The notes beneath the pieces were generated by a model. The model ran no database searches, was not told the origin of the DNA, and worked only from the letters and a program-made list of their open reading frames with translations. Below are positions 15,605 to 57,333 of a DNA stretch of 64,000 nucleotides, piece after piece. This stretch comes from a virus (Duplodnaviria > Heunggongvirae > Uroviricota > Caudoviricetes). The stretch lies in the IMG/VR virus record IMGVR_UViG_2571042005_000001, positions 48,446 through 112,445 of that record, one strand, 5' to 3'. The position numbers and the translations under genes are program-made. Every line of letters begins with the position of its first letter. Position 1 is the stretch's first letter.

Positions 15605-16645
15605 TCAGTGATCAACGCTTCTGGCTTGCTCCAGTTGACGCTTCACGCACAAGGCGATTTCTCGCATCATCAAAGGCGGCACGCTGTTCCCAACCCGAGC
15701 CCACGCCTCCTTGAACTCACCGGGGAACTGGTATTCATCCGGGAAGGAACCGAGGCGCTTCAGCTCACCGAGGTTGATCAACCTCGGGTAACGCCAGTGG
15801 TAAATGCCAGAAGCGCCATTCCCGAACACCGTTTTGCTGATCGTCAAAGCAGGCTTGTTCGGGTCGAGTTTGTGGCTGTTGAACCAGTGGCCTTTCGGGT
15901 GGGCCTCATCGAAGCCCTGGCCGGGTTTCACTTTCGCCCAGATGGACTTCCCGAACTCCGACTGGATCAAACCGGAGTCCTGGTCTTCAGGGAGACCCTC
16001 GAAAGCCTCCCGGACGGTGACCGGTCGGGTGTGCGGCACCGGAAAGACCGGCTGCAGCTTCAAGTCTTTGCGGAAACCCACGAAGATCATGCGCTCCCGG
16101 GCTTGAGGCACCCCGAGGAAACTGGCATTCAGCTTCCGGCAGGCCACTTCGTACCCGCAGGATTTCAGTTCCGTGAGGATCTCAGCAAAAACCTGCTTCA
16201 TTTTGCCTTTCACCATCCCGGCGACGTTCTCCATCACGAAAGCCCGGGGCTGCACGCCCCTCAGGAGGCGCACGAATTCCCGGAACAACTGGTTTCTCGG
16301 GTCATCAATCATGCGCTTCCCGCTGGTGCTGAAGCCCTGGCAGGGAGGACTCCCGTCGAGCACGTCCAACTCACCGACCTGCAGGCCCGTCAAACGGAAG
16401 AATTCAGGCACCGACAACTGCGCGATGTCCCCATGCCACACCTGCAAGTGAGGGTAATTCAACCGCAAAGTGTCCACGGCGTGCTGCTCCCAGTCCACCG
16501 CCAGAACTTCCTTGAAGCCCGCCATGTGGTAACCGGTGCTCGACCCGCCACCCCCAGCGAAGAAACTCGCCACGGTCGGTGCTCCTTGCGCTCTGGGGGC
16601 ATGCGCGTCCGACCAGCACTGCCTGAGGAAATCCGGGTAGGTCAT
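15605..16645 (-). CDS. DNA (cytosine-5)-methyltransferase (346 aa)
   Basis: Canonical C5-MTase motifs are visible: FAGGGG (motif I, AdoMet binding), PCQGFS (motif IV, catalytic Cys), ENV (motif VI), QARER (motif VIII) and GNSVPP (motif X). Confidence 0.9.
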   Translation of the reverse strand: MTYPDFLRQCWSDAHAPRAQGAPTVASFFAGGGGSSTGYHMAGFKEVLAVDWEQHAVDTLRLNYPHLQVWHGDIAQLSVPEFFRLTGLQVGELDVLDGSPPCQGFSTSGKRMIDDPRNQLFREFVRLLRGVQPRAFVMENVAGMVKGKMKQVFAEILTELKSCGYEVACRKLNASFLGVPQARERMIFVGFRKDLKLQPVFPVPHTRPVTVREAFEGLPEDQDSGLIQSEFGKSIWAKVKPGQGFDEAHPKGHWFNSHKLDPNKPALTISKTVFGNGASGIYHWRYPRLINLGELKRLGSFPDEYQFPGEFKEAWARVGNSVPPLMMREIALCVKRQLEQARSVDH

Positions 16646-17258: not shown

Positions 17259-17335
17259 TGGCGATCCGGGCAGGATTTGAACCTGCGACCCTGCGTTTTG
17301 GAGACGCACGCTCTACCAGACTGAGCTACCAGATC
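17259..17335 (-). tRNA. tRNA-Trp (anticodon CCA), 77 nt with encoded CCA
   Basis: The reverse complement folds by eye into a cloverleaf: acceptor GATCTGG/CCGGATC, D-arm GCTC-AGTCTGGTA-GAGC, anticodon stem TGCGT/ACGCA with loop CTCCAAA, T-arm GCAGG-TTCAAAT-CCTGC, discriminator G, CCA. Confidence 0.8.
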
Positions 17336-24077: not shown

Positions 24078-24465
24078 CGAGCACTCCTATGGTCTTTGGG
24101 ATGATCTCCCAGGTGTAATGCGGGAACGGACCATCGGGGGTGCTCACGGTGGCCACCCAATGGCAATGAAAAGCCTTGCTGCGGTCCCCAAGGTGCTGCC
24201 AGCGCAGCACAGCCAGAGGGTTTCGCTGGTGCACCCGCATTTGCTCAGCGGCCATCAACCGGCATGCTTCGACGGAAGAAAACAACTCCAGGTAAATGAG
24301 GCGCTCACTGCCCTCCACCGTCCGGGCCACGCACCGCAAAGAAAACACCCTGCGGGTCTTCTGCAAGGCACCCAGCCACTCCAAGAACCGCAGCCACCTG
24401 AGCTTCAAAGCGACATCAATTTCGACCACATCATGGATCCTTTCACCCCTCGGGGAATGCAACAA
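24055..24465 (-). CDS. Hypothetical protein (136 aa)
   Basis: Minus-strand ORF. Confidence 0.35.
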   Translation of the reverse strand: MLHSPRGERIHDVVEIDVALKLRWLRFLEWLGALQKTRRVFSLRCVARTVEGSERLIYLELFSSVEACRLMAAEQMRVHQRNPLAVLRWQHLGDRSKAFHCHWVATVSTPDGPFPHYTWEIIPKTIGVLDAEFGVV

Positions 24466-24876: not shown

Positions 24877-25300
24877 ACCGCTTCACCTTCTCAGGCGAAA
24901 AGCGTTGCGCAGGAAAAGGATTCCCCTCTTTCAGGAAACCCGGAGCCCCCCTGTTCTTTGTGAGGGGTTGCAGCGCAGCCACCGCAGCCCGCAAGCGGGA
25001 AGCCTCCACTTCCAGAGGCACAGCCGAAACCACGCTGGCAGAACCCTGCTCTGGAGGCATCAAAGCATCCAGCAGCCCTCCCGTCATTTGGTAGGGGCAC
25101 CACTCTGGGACCTTCGGGCGTTTCGTGACCAGAAAGGCCCTCAAAGGATGCGAAGGGTGAGAGAGCGGGGATGCGCCTTCACACCACACCATCAGCACGT
25201 CATCGTCTGGCAAGTCCTGTTCAGCGAGGAGCCACTTGAACTCCCAGCCTTCCGGAAGGCCATGGGAACCCCGAAACCACCCTCCACCCTCACCCTCCAC
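24827..25300 (-). CDS. Hypothetical protein (157 aa; start uncertain)
   Basis: Minus-strand ORF. Confidence 0.35.
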   Translation of the reverse strand: MEGEGGGWFRGSHGLPEGWEFKWLLAEQDLPDDDVLMVWCEGASPLSHPSHPLRAFLVTKRPKVPEWCPYQMTGGLLDALMPPEQGSASVVSAVPLEVEASRLRAAVAALQPLTKNRGAPGFLKEGNPFPAQRFSPEKVKRCAARETRKVRHGRRKV

Positions 25301-25724
25301 GGAGCACCATCAAGCCATGAAATTCAAAGAACAACCCCAGCACCGCGAAAGCAGCAGCTCCAGGCGAATGGAAAAACAGGGCCGTGGACCCCAGCCCCAC
25401 ATGCACCATCGGGCGACTCAGCAACCCGAACCAGTGCACCCGCATCAAATTCACCAAGGTCAAATACAAATTCAACCCCAGCACCACCCAGAACAAACCC
25501 TCTGGCAGCCCGAACTTCCTGAAACCCAAGAAAGCCAGGTGGTACATCGGCAGCACCAGAGCCACGACCAGCAAACCCCACAGCACATGCTCCGCTGCAG
25601 CTTTGGCCTCCAAGGACTCCGAAGCGAAAACCACCCTCCGGCCACTGTGCAGCACATCATGCAACACACCCCAGCACAACACCACGCAATACACCCAGAA
25701 CATGACGGTCAAAAGCAGCACCAT
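25290..25724 (-). CDS. Integral membrane protein (144 aa, about 4 TM helices)
   Basis: Hydrophobic segments VLLLTVMFWVYCVVLCWGVL, LWGLLVVALVLPMYHLAFLGF, LFWVVLGLNLYLTLV and AFAVLGLFFEF. Confidence 0.45.
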   Translation of the reverse strand: MVLLLTVMFWVYCVVLCWGVLHDVLHSGRRVVFASESLEAKAAAEHVLWGLLVVALVLPMYHLAFLGFRKFGLPEGLFWVVLGLNLYLTLVNLMRVHWFGLLSRPMVHVGLGSTALFFHSPGAAAFAVLGLFFEFHGLMVLRGG

Positions 25725-26101: not shown

Positions 26102-26954
26102 TTAGGGGTGTTGGGGTTTGATGTTTGTGTCGATGATTTGGAGGTTGAATTGTTGGCTGAGGGATTGGATGAGTTTTTGGTTGGTTTGGTTCACGCAGAT
26201 TTCCGCTTGGATGAGGATTGGGGATCCGTCTGGGAGGGCAAGGATGAGGTGTGGGTGGGCGTAAGTGTAGTGGTCGGTTTGGAGTTTGTGTTTTTCGAGC
26301 CAGCGCTTGAGCCAGAGCTGGCTTTCGCAGAGCACGAGGGTGGTGTTGGGTGGGATGGGGTTGGTTGTGAAGGCGGGGATGGGGTTGGGGGTGGAGAGGA
26401 GGATTTCGAGGGCTTGGAGGGCAACTTGGTCACCTGTGGTGGGTTTGAGGGAGCCGCCTGCTTGTTCGGGTGTGGGTGGGTAGGGTCGTGTTGCGCTGTG
26501 CCAGGTGAGGAAATCGTGGAGCCGGATGAGGGTGTCTGCATTGATGGTGTGTGTCTGGCCGTGCATGTCTTGGTAGGCGAGGGGCCCGGAGGCATCGATG
26601 GGCTGGTAGAGCTCGTGGAATTTCTCGGGGGACAGGGCTTCTCGGGCACCGTTGTGGTGGGTGAGGATCAGGTCGCCTTCCCGGATGATTTGAATGGATT
26701 GGTGGGTGGTTCTGATGAAGGGTTGCCATTGGTCGATGCCGAAGCCGCGGTCTTTGAGGCGGTGGTCCATGTTTCTGGGGTATTCAGGGTCGATGGTGCT
26801 GATCTGGTCGGGGTGTGGGTGGAGGGTGGTCCATTTGAGTTTTTGGATGTGGATGCCGGAGAGGGTGACGCCGTCTTCCATGCCCCATGTGAAGGGGTGG
26901 GTGGTGACGGGGTTTTGTTTTTGGATGTACTGCTGGGCTTTGGGGGTGGTCATG
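26102..26954 (-). CDS. Hypothetical protein (about 284 aa; start MTTPKAQQY at 26954)
   Basis: The track's 432-aa ORF has a His/Pro-rich N-terminus that is an out-of-frame overlap of the upstream membrane-protein gene, so the internal start is used. Codon usage is A/C-rich. Confidence 0.45.
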
Positions 26955-26964
26955 GTGGGTCCTT

Positions 26965-27339
26965 TCACTTGAGGGTTTGAAGGCCGATGTGGGCGATGGT
27001 GGCGATGAGGATGATGCCTGCGAATCCGCTGTATGTGACGGTGGTTTTTGTTGTGGGGTAGAGCCTTTGGCGCAGGTCGTGGAGGAGCAAGCTGAGGATG
27101 TGGTTGGCGATGATCAGCCAGTAGATCCAGAGGGGGATGTGGAGGTGGGTGAAGCCGAGGTAGTTGAGGTAGTAGATGGGGATGGTGATGGTGATGAGGA
27201 TGAGGTCTCGGAGGGTGTGGTTTACGGTTTTGGGTTGTGTGGGTTTGGGTGGAAGGATGGTGAGCAGGATGGTGAGAATTGCGAGGATGGCGTTGATGGT
27301 GATGTATGCGTAGAGGCTGATGGTGAGGAAGGTGGTCAT
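26965..27339 (-). CDS. Small integral membrane protein (124 aa, about 4 TM helices)
   Basis: Strongly hydrophobic helices (ILAILTILLTIL, LILITITIPIYYL, IPLWIYWLIIANHILSLLL, GFAGIILIATIAHIGL). Confidence 0.5.
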   Translation of the reverse strand: MTTFLTISLYAYITINAILAILTILLTILPPKPTQPKTVNHTLRDLILITITIPIYYLNYLGFTHLHIPLWIYWLIIANHILSLLLHDLRQRLYPTTKTTVTYSGFAGIILIATIAHIGLQTLK

Positions 27340-27396
27340 GGTTGCTCCTGGTTGTTTTGGGGTGGTTGTTTGAGGATTTGGATGTGGGTGGTTGGC

Positions 27397-27903
27397 TCAT
27401 GCGCGTTCATGCTGTTGGTGGGGTGTGCCTGAGAAGTTGAGGCGGTTGTACAATTCCCGCAGGAAAGGTTCGTTCATGGGTTTACTGATCACCAAGGTGC
27501 TGGCGTGCACCCGGTCCATGCGGCGCTTCTCGTTCCGGGTCAGTTCTTTCCAGAGCAGCCCGTACACGGGAAATTCGTTGTTGAGGTAGCGCTGCAGGGT
27601 GGTGAGCCTTTGCTGCCCGTCGATGATCAGGTTGTCGTATTCGTCTGCATCGGGGCTTTCGGTGATCACGAAACGCCCAATGTCGAGTTCCAGCCAGCAG
27701 CTTTCCATGAAGCACACCTGTTGTTCCTGGGTCCACACGAAGGCCCGTTGAAAGTGGGGGAGTTTCAGTCCACAAATGAGGTTGGGGTGTCCTTCTTGAG
27801 CTTGCTGGTGTTTGTAGATGAAGTGGCTGAGCGAAAAGTCGTGGCTTTGGCCTCTGGCAAGAGGGGGTGGGATGCGTTGGTGGTGTTCAGGGAGTTCAGT
27901 CAT
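27397..27903 (-). CDS. DUF262 (ParB/Srx-fold, GmrSD N-terminal-like) domain protein (168 aa)
   Basis: Diagnostic DGQQRLTT motif in NLIIDGQQRLTTLQRYLNN. It is a stand-alone DUF262 with no fused DUF1524/HNH partner. Confidence 0.7.
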   Translation of the reverse strand: MTELPEHHQRIPPPLARGQSHDFSLSHFIYKHQQAQEGHPNLICGLKLPHFQRAFVWTQEQQVCFMESCWLELDIGRFVITESPDADEYDNLIIDGQQRLTTLQRYLNNEFPVYGLLWKELTRNEKRRMDRVHASTLVISKPMNEPFLRELYNRLNFSGTPHQQHERA

Positions 27904-28144
27904 GGTGCCTCGTTGGTTTCTCTGATGGGTTTTGGATGGTGTTCTGGATGATTTTGGTGTTGGTGGTGTGGGCTTGTTGGTTGTCTTCGTGGGTCCAGAG
28001 TGGGGTTTGGAGGGCGCTGGGGTACCATTCGAGGTTGAGGGGGTGGGGTGGTGTTTTGGGGTGTTTCATGGTTTCCTTTGCAGCCAGACTATAGACAATT
28101 CTTTAAAAATAGTATATGATGGTTTCAGTTAAGGGAGGACAGAC

Positions 28145-28552
28145 ATGAACAGCCAGATCAAAATCCACATCCACAATCAGGAAGACAAAGGGTTCTTCGA
28201 ACTCATGGGTCGCTTCTTCGCCAGCTTTCAAGTGCGCCAAGCCATCGGCAGCCCCCTCAGCAGCGACGAAACCTACACCTGGGCTGTGGCCACCTCCGGC
28301 AAAGCTGTCCTCGGCTTCGCAAGCATCAAACCCCTCAAGAACGGAGCCGCCACCTTCGAAGCCGTGTACACCACCGAAGGCAACGAACTCAAAGGCCAAC
28401 TGGTCCAGAGCATCATCGAGCACGCCCGCAACCACGGCATCAAATCTCTCAAAATCATCGCCAAAATCGAGAACGCTGACTTCTACCGCGCTCTGGGCTT
28501 CGTGAGTGGCCGCCTGCAAGGCCAGTTCATCACCCTCGAAATCAAACTCTGA
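28145..28552 (+). CDS. GNAT-family N-acetyltransferase (135 aa)
   Basis: Core with FASIKPLKNGAATFEAVYT, ARNHGIKSLKIIA and FYRALGF motifs. RBS AAGGGAGG 7 nt upstream. Preceded by an AT-rich promoter-like stretch (28090-28135). It is one of the few plus-strand genes in the window. Confidence 0.65.
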   Translation: MNSQIKIHIHNQEDKGFFELMGRFFASFQVRQAIGSPLSSDETYTWAVATSGKAVLGFASIKPLKNGAATFEAVYTTEGNELKGQLVQSIIEHARNHGIKSLKIIAKIENADFYRALGFVSGRLQGQFITLEIKL

Positions 28553-28579
28553 TTCACTTTCACTGAAAGGAACCTGACC

Positions 28580-28810
28580 ATGACCACACTGAACATCACC
28601 ATCGAAAACGAAGGAATCTACTTCTGCCAGAGCGAGAGCGTCGAATTCTACTTGATCCAGTCCGAGGAGGGGGGTTTTGAGCTCGGGAATGAAATGTGGG
28701 ACACCGAAGCCCTGAGTGCCGAGCCTGACTGGGAGACTTTGAAGAAGCAGGCCATCGAGCAAGTGGAAGCCGGTGACTTCCAGGAGCCTGCAGAAGACCT
28801 CGACGACTGA
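28580..28810 (+). CDS. Hyper-acidic small protein (76 aa; about 22 Asp/Glu, 2 Lys, 0 Arg), possible DNA-mimic or immunity protein
   Basis: Sits 27 nt downstream of the GNAT gene in the same operon and is followed by a terminator. Sequence MTTLNITIENEGIYFCQSESVEFYLIQSEEGGFELGNEMWDTEALSAEPDWETLKKQAIEQVEAGDFQEPAEDLDD. Confidence 0.5.
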   Translation: MTTLNITIENEGIYFCQSESVEFYLIQSEEGGFELGNEMWDTEALSAEPDWETLKKQAIEQVEAGDFQEPAEDLDD

Positions 28811-28835
28811 ACTCCTTTTCCCTTACCCTTAACTG

Positions 28836-28862
28836 CCCTCAGGTGACCCCTGAGGGTTTTTG
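28836..28862 (+). terminator. Rho-independent terminator (plus strand) ending the GNAT/acidic-protein operon
   Basis: CCCTCAGG-tgac-CCTGAGGG stem followed by TTTTT. Confidence 0.6.
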
Positions 28863-28881
28863 CTGGACGCTGTTTCTGGTT

Positions 28882-29580
28882 TCACTGCCCCTTTTGGTTT
28901 GGGAGGGGTGTGACGCTCTGGGGGATGGTCAGCAGCTCGATGCCAGGGAAGCGGTCACTGGGTTGCCAGTCGGCAGCAACTTCATCACAGAAATCCAGTC
29001 CATGCTGGGCCACTTCGGGGTACCAATCTGGGCCAGAGATGTGATCCAGAACTTGCTGTTCGTTTTCGGCTTCCACCCAGCAGACCATGATGGTGTGGGT
29101 GTGTGATTCCCCTGAGCACATGAACCATTTGTGGGGGGTTTGCCCTTTGATGGACCTCATGTCATTTGCTTTGAAGCGAACCCAGTAGCGTTTCAGGGTG
29201 CTGGTGCTGGGTTTGGGGACCTTCCGGAATCCGAATTTGGGTAGGGCCCTGTAGAGCATGCTTTCCCGGTGGATGTGCTGGGGCTTGTATGTGACGGTGC
29301 GGGCCTGCTCGTTTTTGTGGTCTTCGATGAACAGGTGATTGTCCACGAAGTGCTTCCAGCCTTGATCGTAGTCCTGGGCGAGACTGAAAGGGTTGGCTTG
29401 GCCGTTCTTGAGTTCCATTTCAACGGCCCAGTGCTCCGTCTCGAAAACCGGGCTGTATGGGGTGCCGGGTGCGGGGGGTGCCTCCTGGGCCACCAGCACT
29501 TCAAGCACGAGGATGATGGTGTATTTGCGCGCTGCGCCTGCAGGGGTGGCATTCAGGGTGTTCTGCTGGGGGTCACTCAT
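28882..29580 (-). CDS. Hypothetical protein (about 232 aa; start MSDPQQNT)
   Basis: Minus-strand ORF in a GT-skewed block. Confidence 0.4.
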   Translation of the reverse strand: MSDPQQNTLNATPAGAARKYTIILVLEVLVAQEAPPAPGTPYSPVFETEHWAVEMELKNGQANPFSLAQDYDQGWKHFVDNHLFIEDHKNEQARTVTYKPQHIHRESMLYRALPKFGFRKVPKPSTSTLKRYWVRFKANDMRSIKGQTPHKWFMCSGESHTHTIMVCWVEAENEQQVLDHISGPDWYPEVAQHGLDFCDEVAADWQPSDRFPGIELLTIPQSVTPLPNQKGQ

Positions 29581-30103
29581 GGGTTTTCTCCGGGTAGAAG
29601 TGCCTGCTGGCCCATCTGGCCAGAGGTGCGCGGTGCAGGTTGTGCCGGTCATGGTCGGCGAGCATTGCGAGGTCCGGTGTGGCTTGCGGGCGGATGGTTG
29701 CGAGGTACTTGAGGTGGTGCAGGATGTTGTACTGGCCCATCAAGTCCGGGTGGGTGTCCATGATGACCAGAGCGAGGGCAGTTGCGCGGCTGTTGCCGTT
29801 CGTGCTTTGGATGTGCAGGTGCTCGGGGCGGTGGTGCTCCACGAACAGGCAAGCCACCCTGCATTGCAGCCACGGGCGGATTTTTGGGGTTTTGGGGTTC
29901 TGGGGGGTGCTGATGTGCTCGAAAGTGAGGCGCAAAAGGGGCCTGCTGGTGTCCACCCATGCGGGTATTCTTTCGGTGGGTTGCCCGAGGCTGATCACCA
30001 TGCTTGGGGTGCTCTGGGGGGGCTCGTTGAGCCCTCCGATGGTGATGATCACAGTTGATCTCCGGTGAAAGTGACGAGGATGCGCCTCTGGGTGGAGGTG
30101 CAC
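29573..30103 (-). CDS. Hypothetical protein (about 140-176 aa; start uncertain)
   Basis: Minus-strand ORF. Confidence 0.3.
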   Translation of the reverse strand: MHLHPEAHPRHFHRRSTVIITIGGLNEPPQSTPSMVISLGQPTERIPAWVDTSRPLLRLTFEHISTPQNPKTPKIRPWLQCRVACLFVEHHRPEHLHIQSTNGNSRATALALVIMDTHPDLMGQYNILHHLKYLATIRPQATPDLAMLADHDRHNLHRAPLARWASRHFYPEKTHE

Positions 30104-31200
30104 ACCCCGAAGTGGGTGTATTCGTCTTTGGGTTCAGGGAGAGGGGTGATGTTGATGGGGTGGCTGAGGCCGCAAGCCGAGCAGTGCCTGACTTGGATGG
30201 TGGTGCTGGGTGTGGCTGCGCTGGTGGTGTTTTTGGCCCAGTTCTCTGGGAGTTGAGGGGCAATGAAGGTCCGGCCCCGGTTGTAGTGCGGGATGGGGTC
30301 TTCTGTTGGGATGGGCACGCAGCTCTCCCAACTTTCGTATTCGTTGCCGTCGGCGTCGAAGTACAGGGTTTTCCCCATGGTTTTTTGGGCGGTGAGGCCG
30401 TGCTTTTTGAGTTCTTTGCGGTCGAAGTCTTCAGGGGTTTTCCAGATGACCGGTTCGATCTTCCAGCCGGGTGCGCGCTGCAGGTGATTGAAGGCCTCGT
30501 TGAACACTTGCAGGAGGTCCACGAAGTGCCGTTGCCATTTGAGGGGCATGCTTTGCAGGAGTGTCCGCTCCAGCAGCAGGTAGTTGGCGTACGACAGGCT
30601 GAAGTATTCGTGGATGGCCCCGTCACGGCTGATTTGCACGCCGTCCGGGGTGTGGGTGGTGTACTGGGTGTCCGGGTCGAACCGGTCCATGAGGTGGGCG
30701 AGCGCAGCGTAACCTTCAGGGGTGAGTTGCTGGCGTTGTGCCTGCAGCAGGGCCAGCCGTGCCCGGAGGATCAGAGAGGTGAGGTCGAGGTTCTCCAGGT
30801 ACAACGTTGTGGCGGTTTCGCTTTGCAGGGTCACGGCTTGGCAGTCTCCATGCAGGAACTGGAAGCGTTCAAGGCCGTCTTGCAGGTCTTTGGCGTAAAG
30901 GTCCTGCAGGGTGTGCTGCTTCCCGCAGTGCTCGCAGTGCAGGGTCATGGTGGCGAAGCAGTACTTGATGTGCGCTCCGGGGGGTGATGTGCTGGGCTCG
31001 GCGACTGGCAGGTAACGGTGGGTTTCGTTGACGATGTACTTGCGGTCCGATTGGGCCCACAAGTCGGGGTTTTTTTCAGCCCAGAGTTGCAGGTTGGTTT
31101 GGGCTTCGTCTCGGGTGGAGCCGTGCACCATGGGGATGTAGTACTTGTTGTGCGGGTCCCAGGTGCTGATCACGGTGATGGGGTTGGGTTCACTTGGCAT
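30049..31200 (-). CDS. Hypothetical protein with two Cys-pair Zn-ribbon-like motifs (383 aa)
   Basis: CEHCGK near the N-terminal third and CSACG near the C-terminus. Otherwise helical. Confidence 0.45.
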   Translation of the reverse strand: MPSEPNPITVISTWDPHNKYYIPMVHGSTRDEAQTNLQLWAEKNPDLWAQSDRKYIVNETHRYLPVAEPSTSPPGAHIKYCFATMTLHCEHCGKQHTLQDLYAKDLQDGLERFQFLHGDCQAVTLQSETATTLYLENLDLTSLILRARLALLQAQRQQLTPEGYAALAHLMDRFDPDTQYTTHTPDGVQISRDGAIHEYFSLSYANYLLLERTLLQSMPLKWQRHFVDLLQVFNEAFNHLQRAPGWKIEPVIWKTPEDFDRKELKKHGLTAQKTMGKTLYFDADGNEYESWESCVPIPTEDPIPHYNRGRTFIAPQLPENWAKNTTSAATPSTTIQVRHCSACGLSHPINITPLPEPKDEYTHFGVCTSTQRRILVTFTGDQL

Positions 31201-47992: not shown

Positions 47993-48817
47993 TCATTTGA
48001 GTTGCACGAAGGGGACGGTGCCCCCAGAGTAAGTGGGCAGTTTCCCATCCCATTTCTGGATGGCTTCGTATTGCACCAGTTGAGGGGTGATGGTTTTGGC
48101 TTTGAGTTTTGCTGCTTCAGCGTCCGCTTTGGCTTTGGTGATGATTTCGTAAGCCCGGGTGTCGGCTTGCAACCGGCGCTTTTCGGCTTCTGCGCGGGTG
48201 GCTCGGATTTCGTTTTCGCGCTGGATGGCTATTTGTGTGGCTTGCTGTGCAGCGTCAATGCTCTGTTTGACTTCGCGGGGCAGGATGATCTGCCCGGTGA
48301 ACATGAAGTTGTCCACCTGAATGAACTCCTTGGAGAGCCTTTCGCGGATCGCTTGGGCCACTTTGAGTTGAAATTCGGGGCGTTTGGTGCCGTTGATTTC
48401 CATTGCGCTGTACTGGGAAGCCACCGAGGTCACTGCGTCTCGCACAATGTCCCGACCTACGGTGTCGATGATGTCAGGGGATTGCTTGCCGTATTTGCTG
48501 TAAATGTTGGGGGTTTTGCCGCGCTCGAAAGCCATGGAGAAAGCCACGTCCGCGGAGAGGGACAGGCCTTCTTTGCTCTGGAATTTCAGGTTGTCTTCGG
48601 CTTTCCATTCAACGCGCTGCAGGCGCACTGGGAACACGATGATGTCCTCAGTGAACGGGTTGTAGGTGATGCGTCCAACCACGATGTTGCTGGTGGTGAC
48701 TTCACGTTTCGCGCCGAGCGTGTCCACCCGGATGGCTTCCTCGTCGGGGTTGACGGTGGTGATGGCGCAGGAGGTCATAAAGGCGATGGCCAGAAACAGG
48801 AAGGGGTGCTTTTTCAT
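47993..48817 (-). CDS. SPFH / band-7 (prohibitin-stomatin-flotillin) domain lipoprotein (274 aa)
   Basis: Lipoprotein signal MKKHPFLFLAIAFMTSC (lipobox MTSC). The SPFH-like core is followed by a long Ala/Glu/Lys-rich coiled region (EIRATRAEAEKRRLQADTRAYEIITKAKADAEAAKLKAK). Confidence 0.65.
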   Translation of the reverse strand: MKKHPFLFLAIAFMTSCAITTVNPDEEAIRVDTLGAKREVTTSNIVVGRITYNPFTEDIIVFPVRLQRVEWKAEDNLKFQSKEGLSLSADVAFSMAFERGKTPNIYSKYGKQSPDIIDTVGRDIVRDAVTSVASQYSAMEINGTKRPEFQLKVAQAIRERLSKEFIQVDNFMFTGQIILPREVKQSIDAAQQATQIAIQRENEIRATRAEAEKRRLQADTRAYEIITKAKADAEAAKLKAKTITPQLVQYEAIQKWDGKLPTYSGGTVPFVQLK

Positions 48818-57258: not shown

Positions 57259-57333
57259 TGGAGGTCAGGGCAGGAATCGAACCTGCAATCTGCCCTTTAC
57301 GAAAGGGCTGCTCTGCCATTGAGCCACCTGACC
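57259..57333 (-). tRNA. tRNA-Thr (anticodon CGT), 75 nt with encoded CCA
   Basis: The reverse complement gives a cloverleaf by eye: acceptor GGTCAGG/CCTGACC, D-arm GCTC-AATGGCA-GAGC, anticodon stem GCCCT/AGGGC with loop TTCGTAA, T-arm GCAGG-TTCGATT-CCTGC, discriminator T, CCA. Confidence 0.8.

Follow-up and report, generated by a model that had tools for sequence, protein, structure and literature searches.

A mini-GNAT and acidic-protein gene pair and a DUF262 gene in variable DNA of a Deinococcus misasensis prophage

We analysed a stretch of 64,000 nucleotides of caudoviral DNA (IMG/VR record IMGVR_UViG_2571042005_000001, positions 48,446 to 112,445; hereafter the window), in which a rightward gene pair encoding a GNAT-fold protein and a hyper-acidic protein lies close to a leftward gene encoding a DUF262 protein. 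The reading that we favour, with a probability of roughly 45%, is that these are two evolutionarily independent accessory elements in a variable stretch of the leftward operon of a Deinococcus misasensis prophage, namely an older GNAT-acidic operon and a recently gained DUF262 gene. A first-pass annotation had proposed a single compact defence or anti-defence locus. All three open reading frames (ORFs) that it listed are present, and its unified reading is only partly supported. The locus is ordinary phage accessory-gene mosaicism and not a demonstrated three-gene defence system; a defence or anti-defence role is possible.

Gene organisation and comparison with the sole relative

The sole known relative of this phage lineage in all collections searched is an 8-kb metagenome contig (L005), which is collinear with the window at 90–93% DNA identity. 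It carries the GNAT and the acidic gene (90% and 89% amino-acid identity to the window proteins, respectively) and contains neither DUF262 nor any other ParB-fold gene in its 8 kb. At the DUF262 site the window has a 532-bp cassette where L005 has an unrelated 267 bp, which form the middle of an intact 155-residue gene. Because DUF262 is absent from L005 and its cassette interrupts a gene that is intact there, we conclude that it is the recent acquisition, which came separately and disrupted a pre-existing phage gene. This corrects the picture of the locus: DUF262, and not the GNAT pair, was recently gained, and the three genes are not one system. Nor is the proposed three-gene unit supported by the other loci of the GNAT family described below, none of which shows such a linkage. 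The features of the region are as follows.

27339–27395, minus strand: non-coding 3' remnant of the 155-residue gene, 57 nt (phmmer E 1.8e-7 to the C terminus of the L005 protein)
27396–27927, minus strand: single-gene cassette, 532 bp, comprising its own ribosome-binding site and the DUF262 ORF (blastn breakpoints, junction alignment)
27397–27903, minus strand: stand-alone ParB-fold DUF262 (GmrS-like) NTPase domain protein, 168 residues (Pfam; phage homologues)
27896–28069, minus strand: orf57, 47 5' codons of the 155-residue gene plus 10 new codons from the cassette (phmmer E 1.9e-28; junctions)
28070–28144, unstranded: divergent intergenic region between leftward orf57 and the rightward GNAT gene
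28092–28120, plus strand: sigma-70-like promoter candidate TAGACA-17-TATGAT (10/12 consensus matches; same site in L005)
28131–28139, plus strand: Shine-Dalgarno sequence AAGGGAGGA, 5 nt ahead of the GNAT ATG (read from the sequence; invariant in L005)
28145–28552, plus strand: mini-GNAT-fold protein, 135 residues (Pfam, HMMER family, AlphaFold2, Foldseek, dN/dS)
28565–28572, plus strand: ribosome-binding site GAAAGGAA of the acidic gene (read from the sequence)
28580–28810, plus strand: hyper-acidic orphan protein, 76 residues (composition, AlphaFold2, dN/dS, homologue search)
28835–28862, plus strand: intrinsic-terminator-like hairpin and T-run (fold energy; in DNA without L005 counterpart)

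The orientation of the pair was evaluated with a codon-position GC test, in which real ORFs combine a GC content of at least 0.68 at third positions with a low one at second positions. Between 4.8 and 63.4 kb all well-patterned ORFs are on the minus strand save 28145–28552 and 28580–28810, which bears out the strand dominance noted earlier and leaves the pair as the sole plus-strand genes. Two further plus-strand ORFs with the GC pattern were rejected as shadows of minus-strand genes. DUF262 had been described as lying divergently beside the pair. The divergence holds and the direct adjacency does not: orf57, next to the divergent intergenic region, comes first in the leftward unit and DUF262 second. 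The 3' remnant at 27339–27395 now serves as spacer and ribosome-binding site ahead of the next gene.

The promoter, strong ribosome-binding site and terminator attributed to the pair were all found at the sequence level. The two genes are separated by 27 nt, and the terminator candidate consists of a 9-bp GC-rich stem with a 5-nt loop (28835–28857) followed by UUUUUG, with a fold energy of -18.3 kcal/mol (z -2.69 against shuffled sequences). Since the promoter and terminator counts of a scan of the whole region show no excess over chance, the argument for these signals is carried by their position and conservation. The 121 nt from 28040 to 28160, which span the divergent intergenic region, share 98% identity with L005, whereas the coding DNA next to them shares about 90%, and both promoter hexamers and the GNAT Shine-Dalgarno sequence are invariant; with two sequences compared, this intergenic conservation is suggestive rather than conclusive. 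The ratio of non-synonymous to synonymous substitution rates (dN/dS) between window and L005 is 0.18 for the GNAT gene and 0.12 for the acidic gene (flanking genes, 0.09–1.8), showing, as far as sequence comparison can, that both are under purifying selection. These observations support the view that the GNAT and acidic genes form a transcription unit of their own, which runs against its neighbours in DNA derived from a phage.

The neighbourhood is variable, since each genome holds a gene that the other does not have in full. An orphan N6/N4 DNA methyltransferase gene adjoins the pair in L005 (2723–3460), where the window has 93 bp (28826–28918) that include the terminator hairpin, and a 383-residue zinc-ribbon-like gene of the window (30049–31200) is mostly missing from L005. 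The description of the pair as a moron was thus only half sustained. It does have its own promoter and terminator by sequence-level signals; variable presence among relatives (n=1) is seen instead for the DUF262 cassette, which is absent from L005, whereas the pair is present there and its genes have a phage-typical codon composition. Neither the GNAT nor the acidic protein nor the Metallophos neighbour had a match in scans of IMG/VR, and a scan of GTDB genomes with the 283-residue neighbour was equally negative. The sole match of a JGI metagenome scan with the GNAT was a chromosomal GNAT, which was rejected as unrelated.

The DUF262 protein matches Pfam GmrSD_N (PF03235) with 64.5 bits (E 1.8e-17, cutoff 33.2). 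Its sequences QRAFVW, DGQQR and YNRLN correspond to all three motifs defined for this domain (QRxxxW, DGxQR and FxxxN; PMC12065111). PHROG 1583 and PADLOC NsnA match it by their N-terminal domains only. From residue 10 to the last, it aligns with proteins of about 175–180 residues from phages, namely Vibrio phage K139 orf10, Sinorhizobium phage phiM12 gp065 and Salicola phage SCTP-2 gp312, to which it is 33–40% identical and with which it shares an identical C-terminal YNxLNFxGxxH..E.A motif. LPxFQRxxVW, IDGQQR and YNxLNFxG are invariant across these short phage proteins. The suspicion of a truncated pseudogene is thereby dispelled, because the protein is a full-length member of a conserved short phage family, and we conclude from its sequence that a ParB-fold NTP-binding protein is encoded here intact and on its own. 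GmrS homologues with a single domain form a known class that is as yet uncharacterised (PMC4619093). Like GmrS/GmrSD, NsnA of Menshen, SspE and DndB, the window protein has the DUF262 domain with its three motifs (PMC12065111); unlike them, it consists only of the roughly 170-residue NTPase domain. As had been noted, it is without a nuclease partner: no nuclease (DUF1524/HNH), ParBDB or NsnB/C domain was found in the protein or in the neighbouring genes. The phage homologues occupy other genomic positions, share no neighbour with each other or with the window gene, and none adjoins a member of this GNAT family.

The mini-GNAT family, its modules and the acidic protein

The window GNAT scores marginally above the gathering threshold of Pfam Acetyltransf_1 (21.9 bits, cutoff 20.7). 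A word-indexed search matched it to itself alone, and tblastn of this protein and of one relative (P0016) against phages gave no match. By contrast with the word-indexed search, a HMMER scan of 1.84 billion representative proteins returned 118 relatives, nearly all of 130–150 residues, which align end to end at 25–40% identity with E values down to 3e-15; the family hidden Markov model scores the window protein at 2.7e-41. Pfam GNAT models match 35 of 42 family members, the homologues scoring strongly, and PHROG 1249, "acetyltransferase", matches 24 of the 42; the window GNAT itself has no PHROG match. AlphaFold2 with the family alignment gave a model of high predicted local confidence (pLDDT 96.5) and complete topology (beta1-alpha1-alpha2-beta2-4-alpha3-beta5-alpha4-beta6-7), which Foldseek matched to many GNATs with probability 1.0 and template-modelling (TM) scores of 0.7–0.78.

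Both Foldseek and a PDB profile search returned generic GNATs (RimI, PaiA, GCN5, SACOL1063), the top sequence-profile match being the bS18-alanine N-acetyltransferase 9mto (E 1.5e-10). The nearest proteins are RimI- and PaiA-like and the generic GNAT fold is shared (TM about 0.75), but identity to RimI-type and other small housekeeping N-acetyltransferases is only 12–18%, NCBIfam scores lie far below their cutoffs, and the window GNAT is phage-borne and lacks their P-loop motif.

The N-terminal arm (G22, FFAS, W46) is the most conserved part of the family and is kept in the window GNAT, which shares the family motif LMGxFFAS...W.VA and the GF motif; it also has Tyr114 and the motif B GF. The pyrophosphate loop reads VYTTEGNELKGQL and has neither Arg nor Gln, so that the Q/R-x-x-G-x-G/A motif A is absent. 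This motif is already weak across the family, its canonical form occurring in 16 of 98 members. The beta4-alpha3 segment counts 23 residues in the window protein (loop EGNELKG) versus 26 in 70 of the 98. Because the pyrophosphate-binding loop is weak in the family and further shortened here, catalysis cannot be assumed.

In order to place the family, ten contexts of distant relatives, all on loci outside the window, were inspected. A PAPS-reductase/DUF3440 gene occurs in nine of them (L006, L007, L009, L012, L013, L015, L018, L022 and L023 show the module) and a ParB_N gene as well in at least eight, often together with an SNF2 helicase. The neighbours of each family member are listed below.

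P0040: SNF2, PAPS reductase, ParB_N
P0037: PAPS reductase, ParB_N
P0005: PAPS reductase, ParB_N
P0006: PAPS reductase, ParB_N
P0008: SNF2, PAPS reductase, ParB_N
P0009: SNF2, PAPS reductase, ParB_N
P0024: PAPS reductase, then a 238-residue protein without recorded Pfam match
P0007: PAPS reductase, ParB_N
Ralstonia megaplasmid member: YadA-type adhesin, PAPS reductase, GNAT, split ParB
P0004, the sole exception: adjoins a type IV CRISPR-Cas locus

The mini-GNAT of about 135 residues is thus a recurrent third component of uncharacterised PAPS-reductase/ParB modules in phages, plasmids and some bacteria. These modules resemble the gene pair named IbrA/IbrB or YbdN/YbdM (PMC9068703). No PAPS-reductase or ParB_N homologue was found in the 64-kb window, and for this reason the window GNAT is an orphan of the module, a diverged member of the mini-GNAT family that is associated with IbrA/IbrB modules. 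It is like the PAPS-reductase/ParB_N mini-GNATs (PHROG 1249) in its full-length homology, its size and its N-terminal and GF motifs, and unlike them in that PAPS-reductase, ParB_N and SNF2 genes are missing from its neighbourhood, in its shortened loop and in being paired with an acidic orphan. None of the other GNAT-family loci has a DUF262 gene, a homologue of the acidic protein or a comparable downstream acidic ORF. The module context hints at a ParB-directed pathway of DNA or nucleotide modification. We infer that the family may act on DNA or nucleotides, and two published results on ParB proteins fit this: fusions of a ParB fold with an acetyltransferase are known and bind GTP (PMC12704722), and some DNA-modifying dioxygenases need phage ParB proteins (PMC13229309).

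CRISPR-Cas genes lie within a few kb of GNAT-family members on several contigs (L008 1505–4931, L015 7560–8423, L018 5118–6311); they are of type IV (Csf1/Csf3/Cas6) or include Cse1. These neighbours suggest phage-plasmid or plasmid hosts for the contigs concerned.

The acidic protein contains 21 Asp and Glu in 76 residues (27.6%), 2 Lys and no Arg, with an isoelectric point (pI) of 4.05. The strong acidity announced in the first-pass annotation is hence real, its figure of about 29% being slightly too high. A single homologue was found among 5.8 billion proteins, on L005, so that two sequences are known in all. There was no match in Pfam (E <= 1), PHROG, NCBIfam or PDB sequences; tblastn gave one chance-level match in phages (E 0.7) and none in plasmids, and a profile comparison found the protein unrelated to the GNAT family. 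The best AlphaFold2 model (pLDDT 88) is a four-strand beta meander with a helix at 51–63 and a disordered acidic tail. Foldseek returned nothing significant for it, the best match being the pneumococcal toxin-antitoxin module 6af4 (E 0.19) and the next the phage RNA-polymerase inhibitor P7. The acidic protein is a lineage-specific addition, and acidity is its sole link to DNA mimics.

Weighing the explanations

According to the explanation that we favour, the GNAT-acidic operon is the older element and would be transcribed to the right under a conserved promoter of its own, as far as its own terminator, probably independently of the lytic operon. The GNAT, with a minimal but complete fold, would descend from the family found in SNF2/PAPS-reductase/ParB_N modules, having lost its partners and had its acetyl-CoA loop shortened. 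Because the N-terminal substrate arm is retained, it probably still recognises the usual ligand of the family, which it would acylate or merely bind and which is presumably something other than the lineage-specific acidic protein. The latter may bind a basic surface, most likely on a protein of the host that binds nucleic acid; the GNAT is a less likely partner. The pair would most plausibly be host-modulating or anti-defence in function, with a target in the host or the phage.

Several points weigh against this explanation. The words "older" and "conserved" rely on a comparison of two sequences, the window and L005. The acidic model was built on a two-sequence alignment, its five versions ranging from pLDDT 67 to 88, and a simple scan found no leftward promoter. 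Given the missing Q/RxxGxG/A, it is open to doubt whether the window GNAT is an acetyltransferase. Finally, the ParB-fold DUF262 gene adjoins a GNAT whose relatives nearly always neighbour ParB_N, and a functional link between them is possible.

That last point is the starting place for a doubtful alternative, in which DUF262 stands in for the ParB_N partner of the family and directs or gates the GNAT on DNA, both being under a shared divergent control region. At least eight of the ten family contexts have ParB_N beside the GNAT or close by, the fusion proteins that bind GTP (PMC12704722) and the need of some DNA-modifying enzymes for phage ParB (PMC13229309) also speak for it, and DUF262 and the GNAT lie on either side of one highly conserved 75-bp region. 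However, the pair in L005 is under purifying selection with no DUF262 or ParB-fold gene in 8 kb, the DUF262 gene came as a cassette that broke another gene, and a 57-codon remnant ORF separates it from the control region. Moreover, other loci of the GNAT family have no DUF262 and other short-DUF262 loci have no such GNAT. An equally doubtful proposal comes in two forms. Either the GNAT and DUF262 would make a minimal NTP-gated, DNA-directed acyltransferase pair, in which one ParB fold has taken the place of another and the acidic protein serves as regulator, or the nuclease-less DUF262 would be a decoy that poisons host GmrSD- or Menshen-type sensors of methylated phage DNA. If true, either form would amount to a new anti-defence principle.

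The acidic protein might alternatively be a stand-alone DNA mimic with anti-restriction, anti-BREX or anti-CRISPR activity, and the GNAT a passenger that is unrelated or catalytically dead and might serve as a regulator, as in IbrAB loci. We hold this to be unlikely, though among the rivals it deserves the most attention. The net charge of about -19 over 76 residues is comparable with that of Ocr, the predicted fold (a small beta-sheet, a helix and an acidic tail) would suit such a role, and the gene lies in a variable region where L005 carries an orphan methyltransferase; the Ralstonia member of the GNAT family, whose neighbours are a PAPS reductase and a YadA adhesin, is annotated "transcriptional regulator". 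Strong negative charge is common to the window protein and to Ocr, ArdA, Ugi, AcrIIA4 and AcrIIC2, but it is by itself unspecific, and the window protein has no family match, in Pfam or PHROG, and no significant structural match to these mimics. The Ocr/ArdA-like identity proposed at first thus finds no backing, and the GNAT is not a dead passenger, because it is under purifying selection.

The other early proposal, a toxin-antitoxin or toxin-immunity pair, would make the GNAT toxic (for example towards aminoacyl-tRNA) and have the acidic protein neutralise it by binding, resulting in prophage stabilisation or abortive infection. Complementary charge speaks for it (pI 9.26 for the GNAT versus 4.05), as do the co-transcribed and tightly spaced arrangement of two genes that occur together in both genomes, each under purifying selection, and the fact that the best Foldseek match of the acidic model, although non-significant, is to a toxin-antitoxin module. 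Like the GNAT-RHH type II modules (TacAT, AtaRT, KacAT, ItaRT), the pair joins a GNAT fold to a small acidic neighbour on a mobile element. The likeness to TacT and AtaT does not go beyond the fold, however: TacT, AtaT, KacT and ItaT are absent from the top 50 Foldseek and top 60 PDB profile matches. The acidic partner has no ribbon-helix-helix (RHH), helix-turn-helix or DUF1778 domain and lies downstream, in a gene order opposite to that of the GNAT-RHH modules. The family does not appear intrinsically toxic either, because nine of the ten contexts have no small partner gene and instead a PAPS reductase and ParB_N, and no antitoxin accompanies these relatives; the acetyl-CoA loop of the window GNAT is in addition degenerate. 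YjhX(TopAI)-YjhQ, a system named in PMC9068703, likewise has a GNAT gene in one transcription unit with the gene of a small protein, on a prophage-like element. There the small protein is the toxin and the GNAT-type protein the antitoxin, and the gene order is opposite; YjhX is basic, unlike the acidic window protein, which has no Pfam match at E <= 1, the YjhX toxin family included. On balance, a toxin-antitoxin function strikes us as improbable.

The locus does not overturn current understanding. Besides known kinds of phage accessory genes it offers a lead in the mini-GNAT family, and it flags two experimental targets, the conserved short phage DUF262 family and the hyper-acidic orphan under purifying selection.

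Source and setting of the window

A Deinococcus misasensis protein at NCBI is exactly identical to the window GNAT. The window, with a GC content of about 58%, encodes a large terminase domain, an S49 prohead protease, a C5 DNA methylase and a DUF5131 protein, and pRha and Metallophos genes lie near the GNAT/acidic/DUF262 site. Megablast of 26–31 kb against GenBank phages found no match at the DNA level. A 39.6-kb Logan contig from SRR3313967, an independent assembly of the same organism, stops at about window position 24348, which could mark a repeat or an end of the phage genome.

The C5 cytosine DNA methylase and the DUF5131 (Gp37/Gp68-like) protein are encoded by the phage at 15605–16645 and 49044–50075. 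A phage whose DNA is methylated could be attacked by type IV (GmrSD-like) enzymes, a point of relevance to the speculation about DUF262.

Minus-strand tRNA genes for Trp (CCA) and Thr (CGT) are located at 17259–17335 and 57259–57333, their starts lying exactly 40,000 bp apart. As their sequences are unrelated, we rejected the pair as attachment-site repeats. The Thr tRNA gene adjoins a fall of GC content to 0.50 at 58–60 kb, which may be the end of the prophage.

Between 20001 and 32000 the coding strands are unusually C/A-rich, with a plus-strand GC skew of up to 0.45, and encode His/Pro/Gln/Thr-rich proteins. Plus-strand genes were rejected as the cause of the opposite skew at 24–26 kb, for which a hydrophobic minus-strand gene (25290–25724) accounts. 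A 432-residue ORF (26102–27400) that overlaps the DUF262 stop codon (ATGA) was also discarded, the codon-position GC of its N-terminal part being wrong. The real gene within it is the 283-residue ORF 26102–26953, and the His/Pro-rich N-terminal part is an artefact that arises when the C/A-rich coding strand is read out of frame. The gene that follows DUF262 in the leftward unit is given below.

26965–27339, minus strand: predicted membrane protein, 124 residues (conserved in L005; codon-position GC fits the frame)

Compared with L005, this gene has a dN/dS of 1.78 (18.5 non-synonymous and 3.5 synonymous changes) with correct codon-position GC, which suggests relaxed or diversifying selection.

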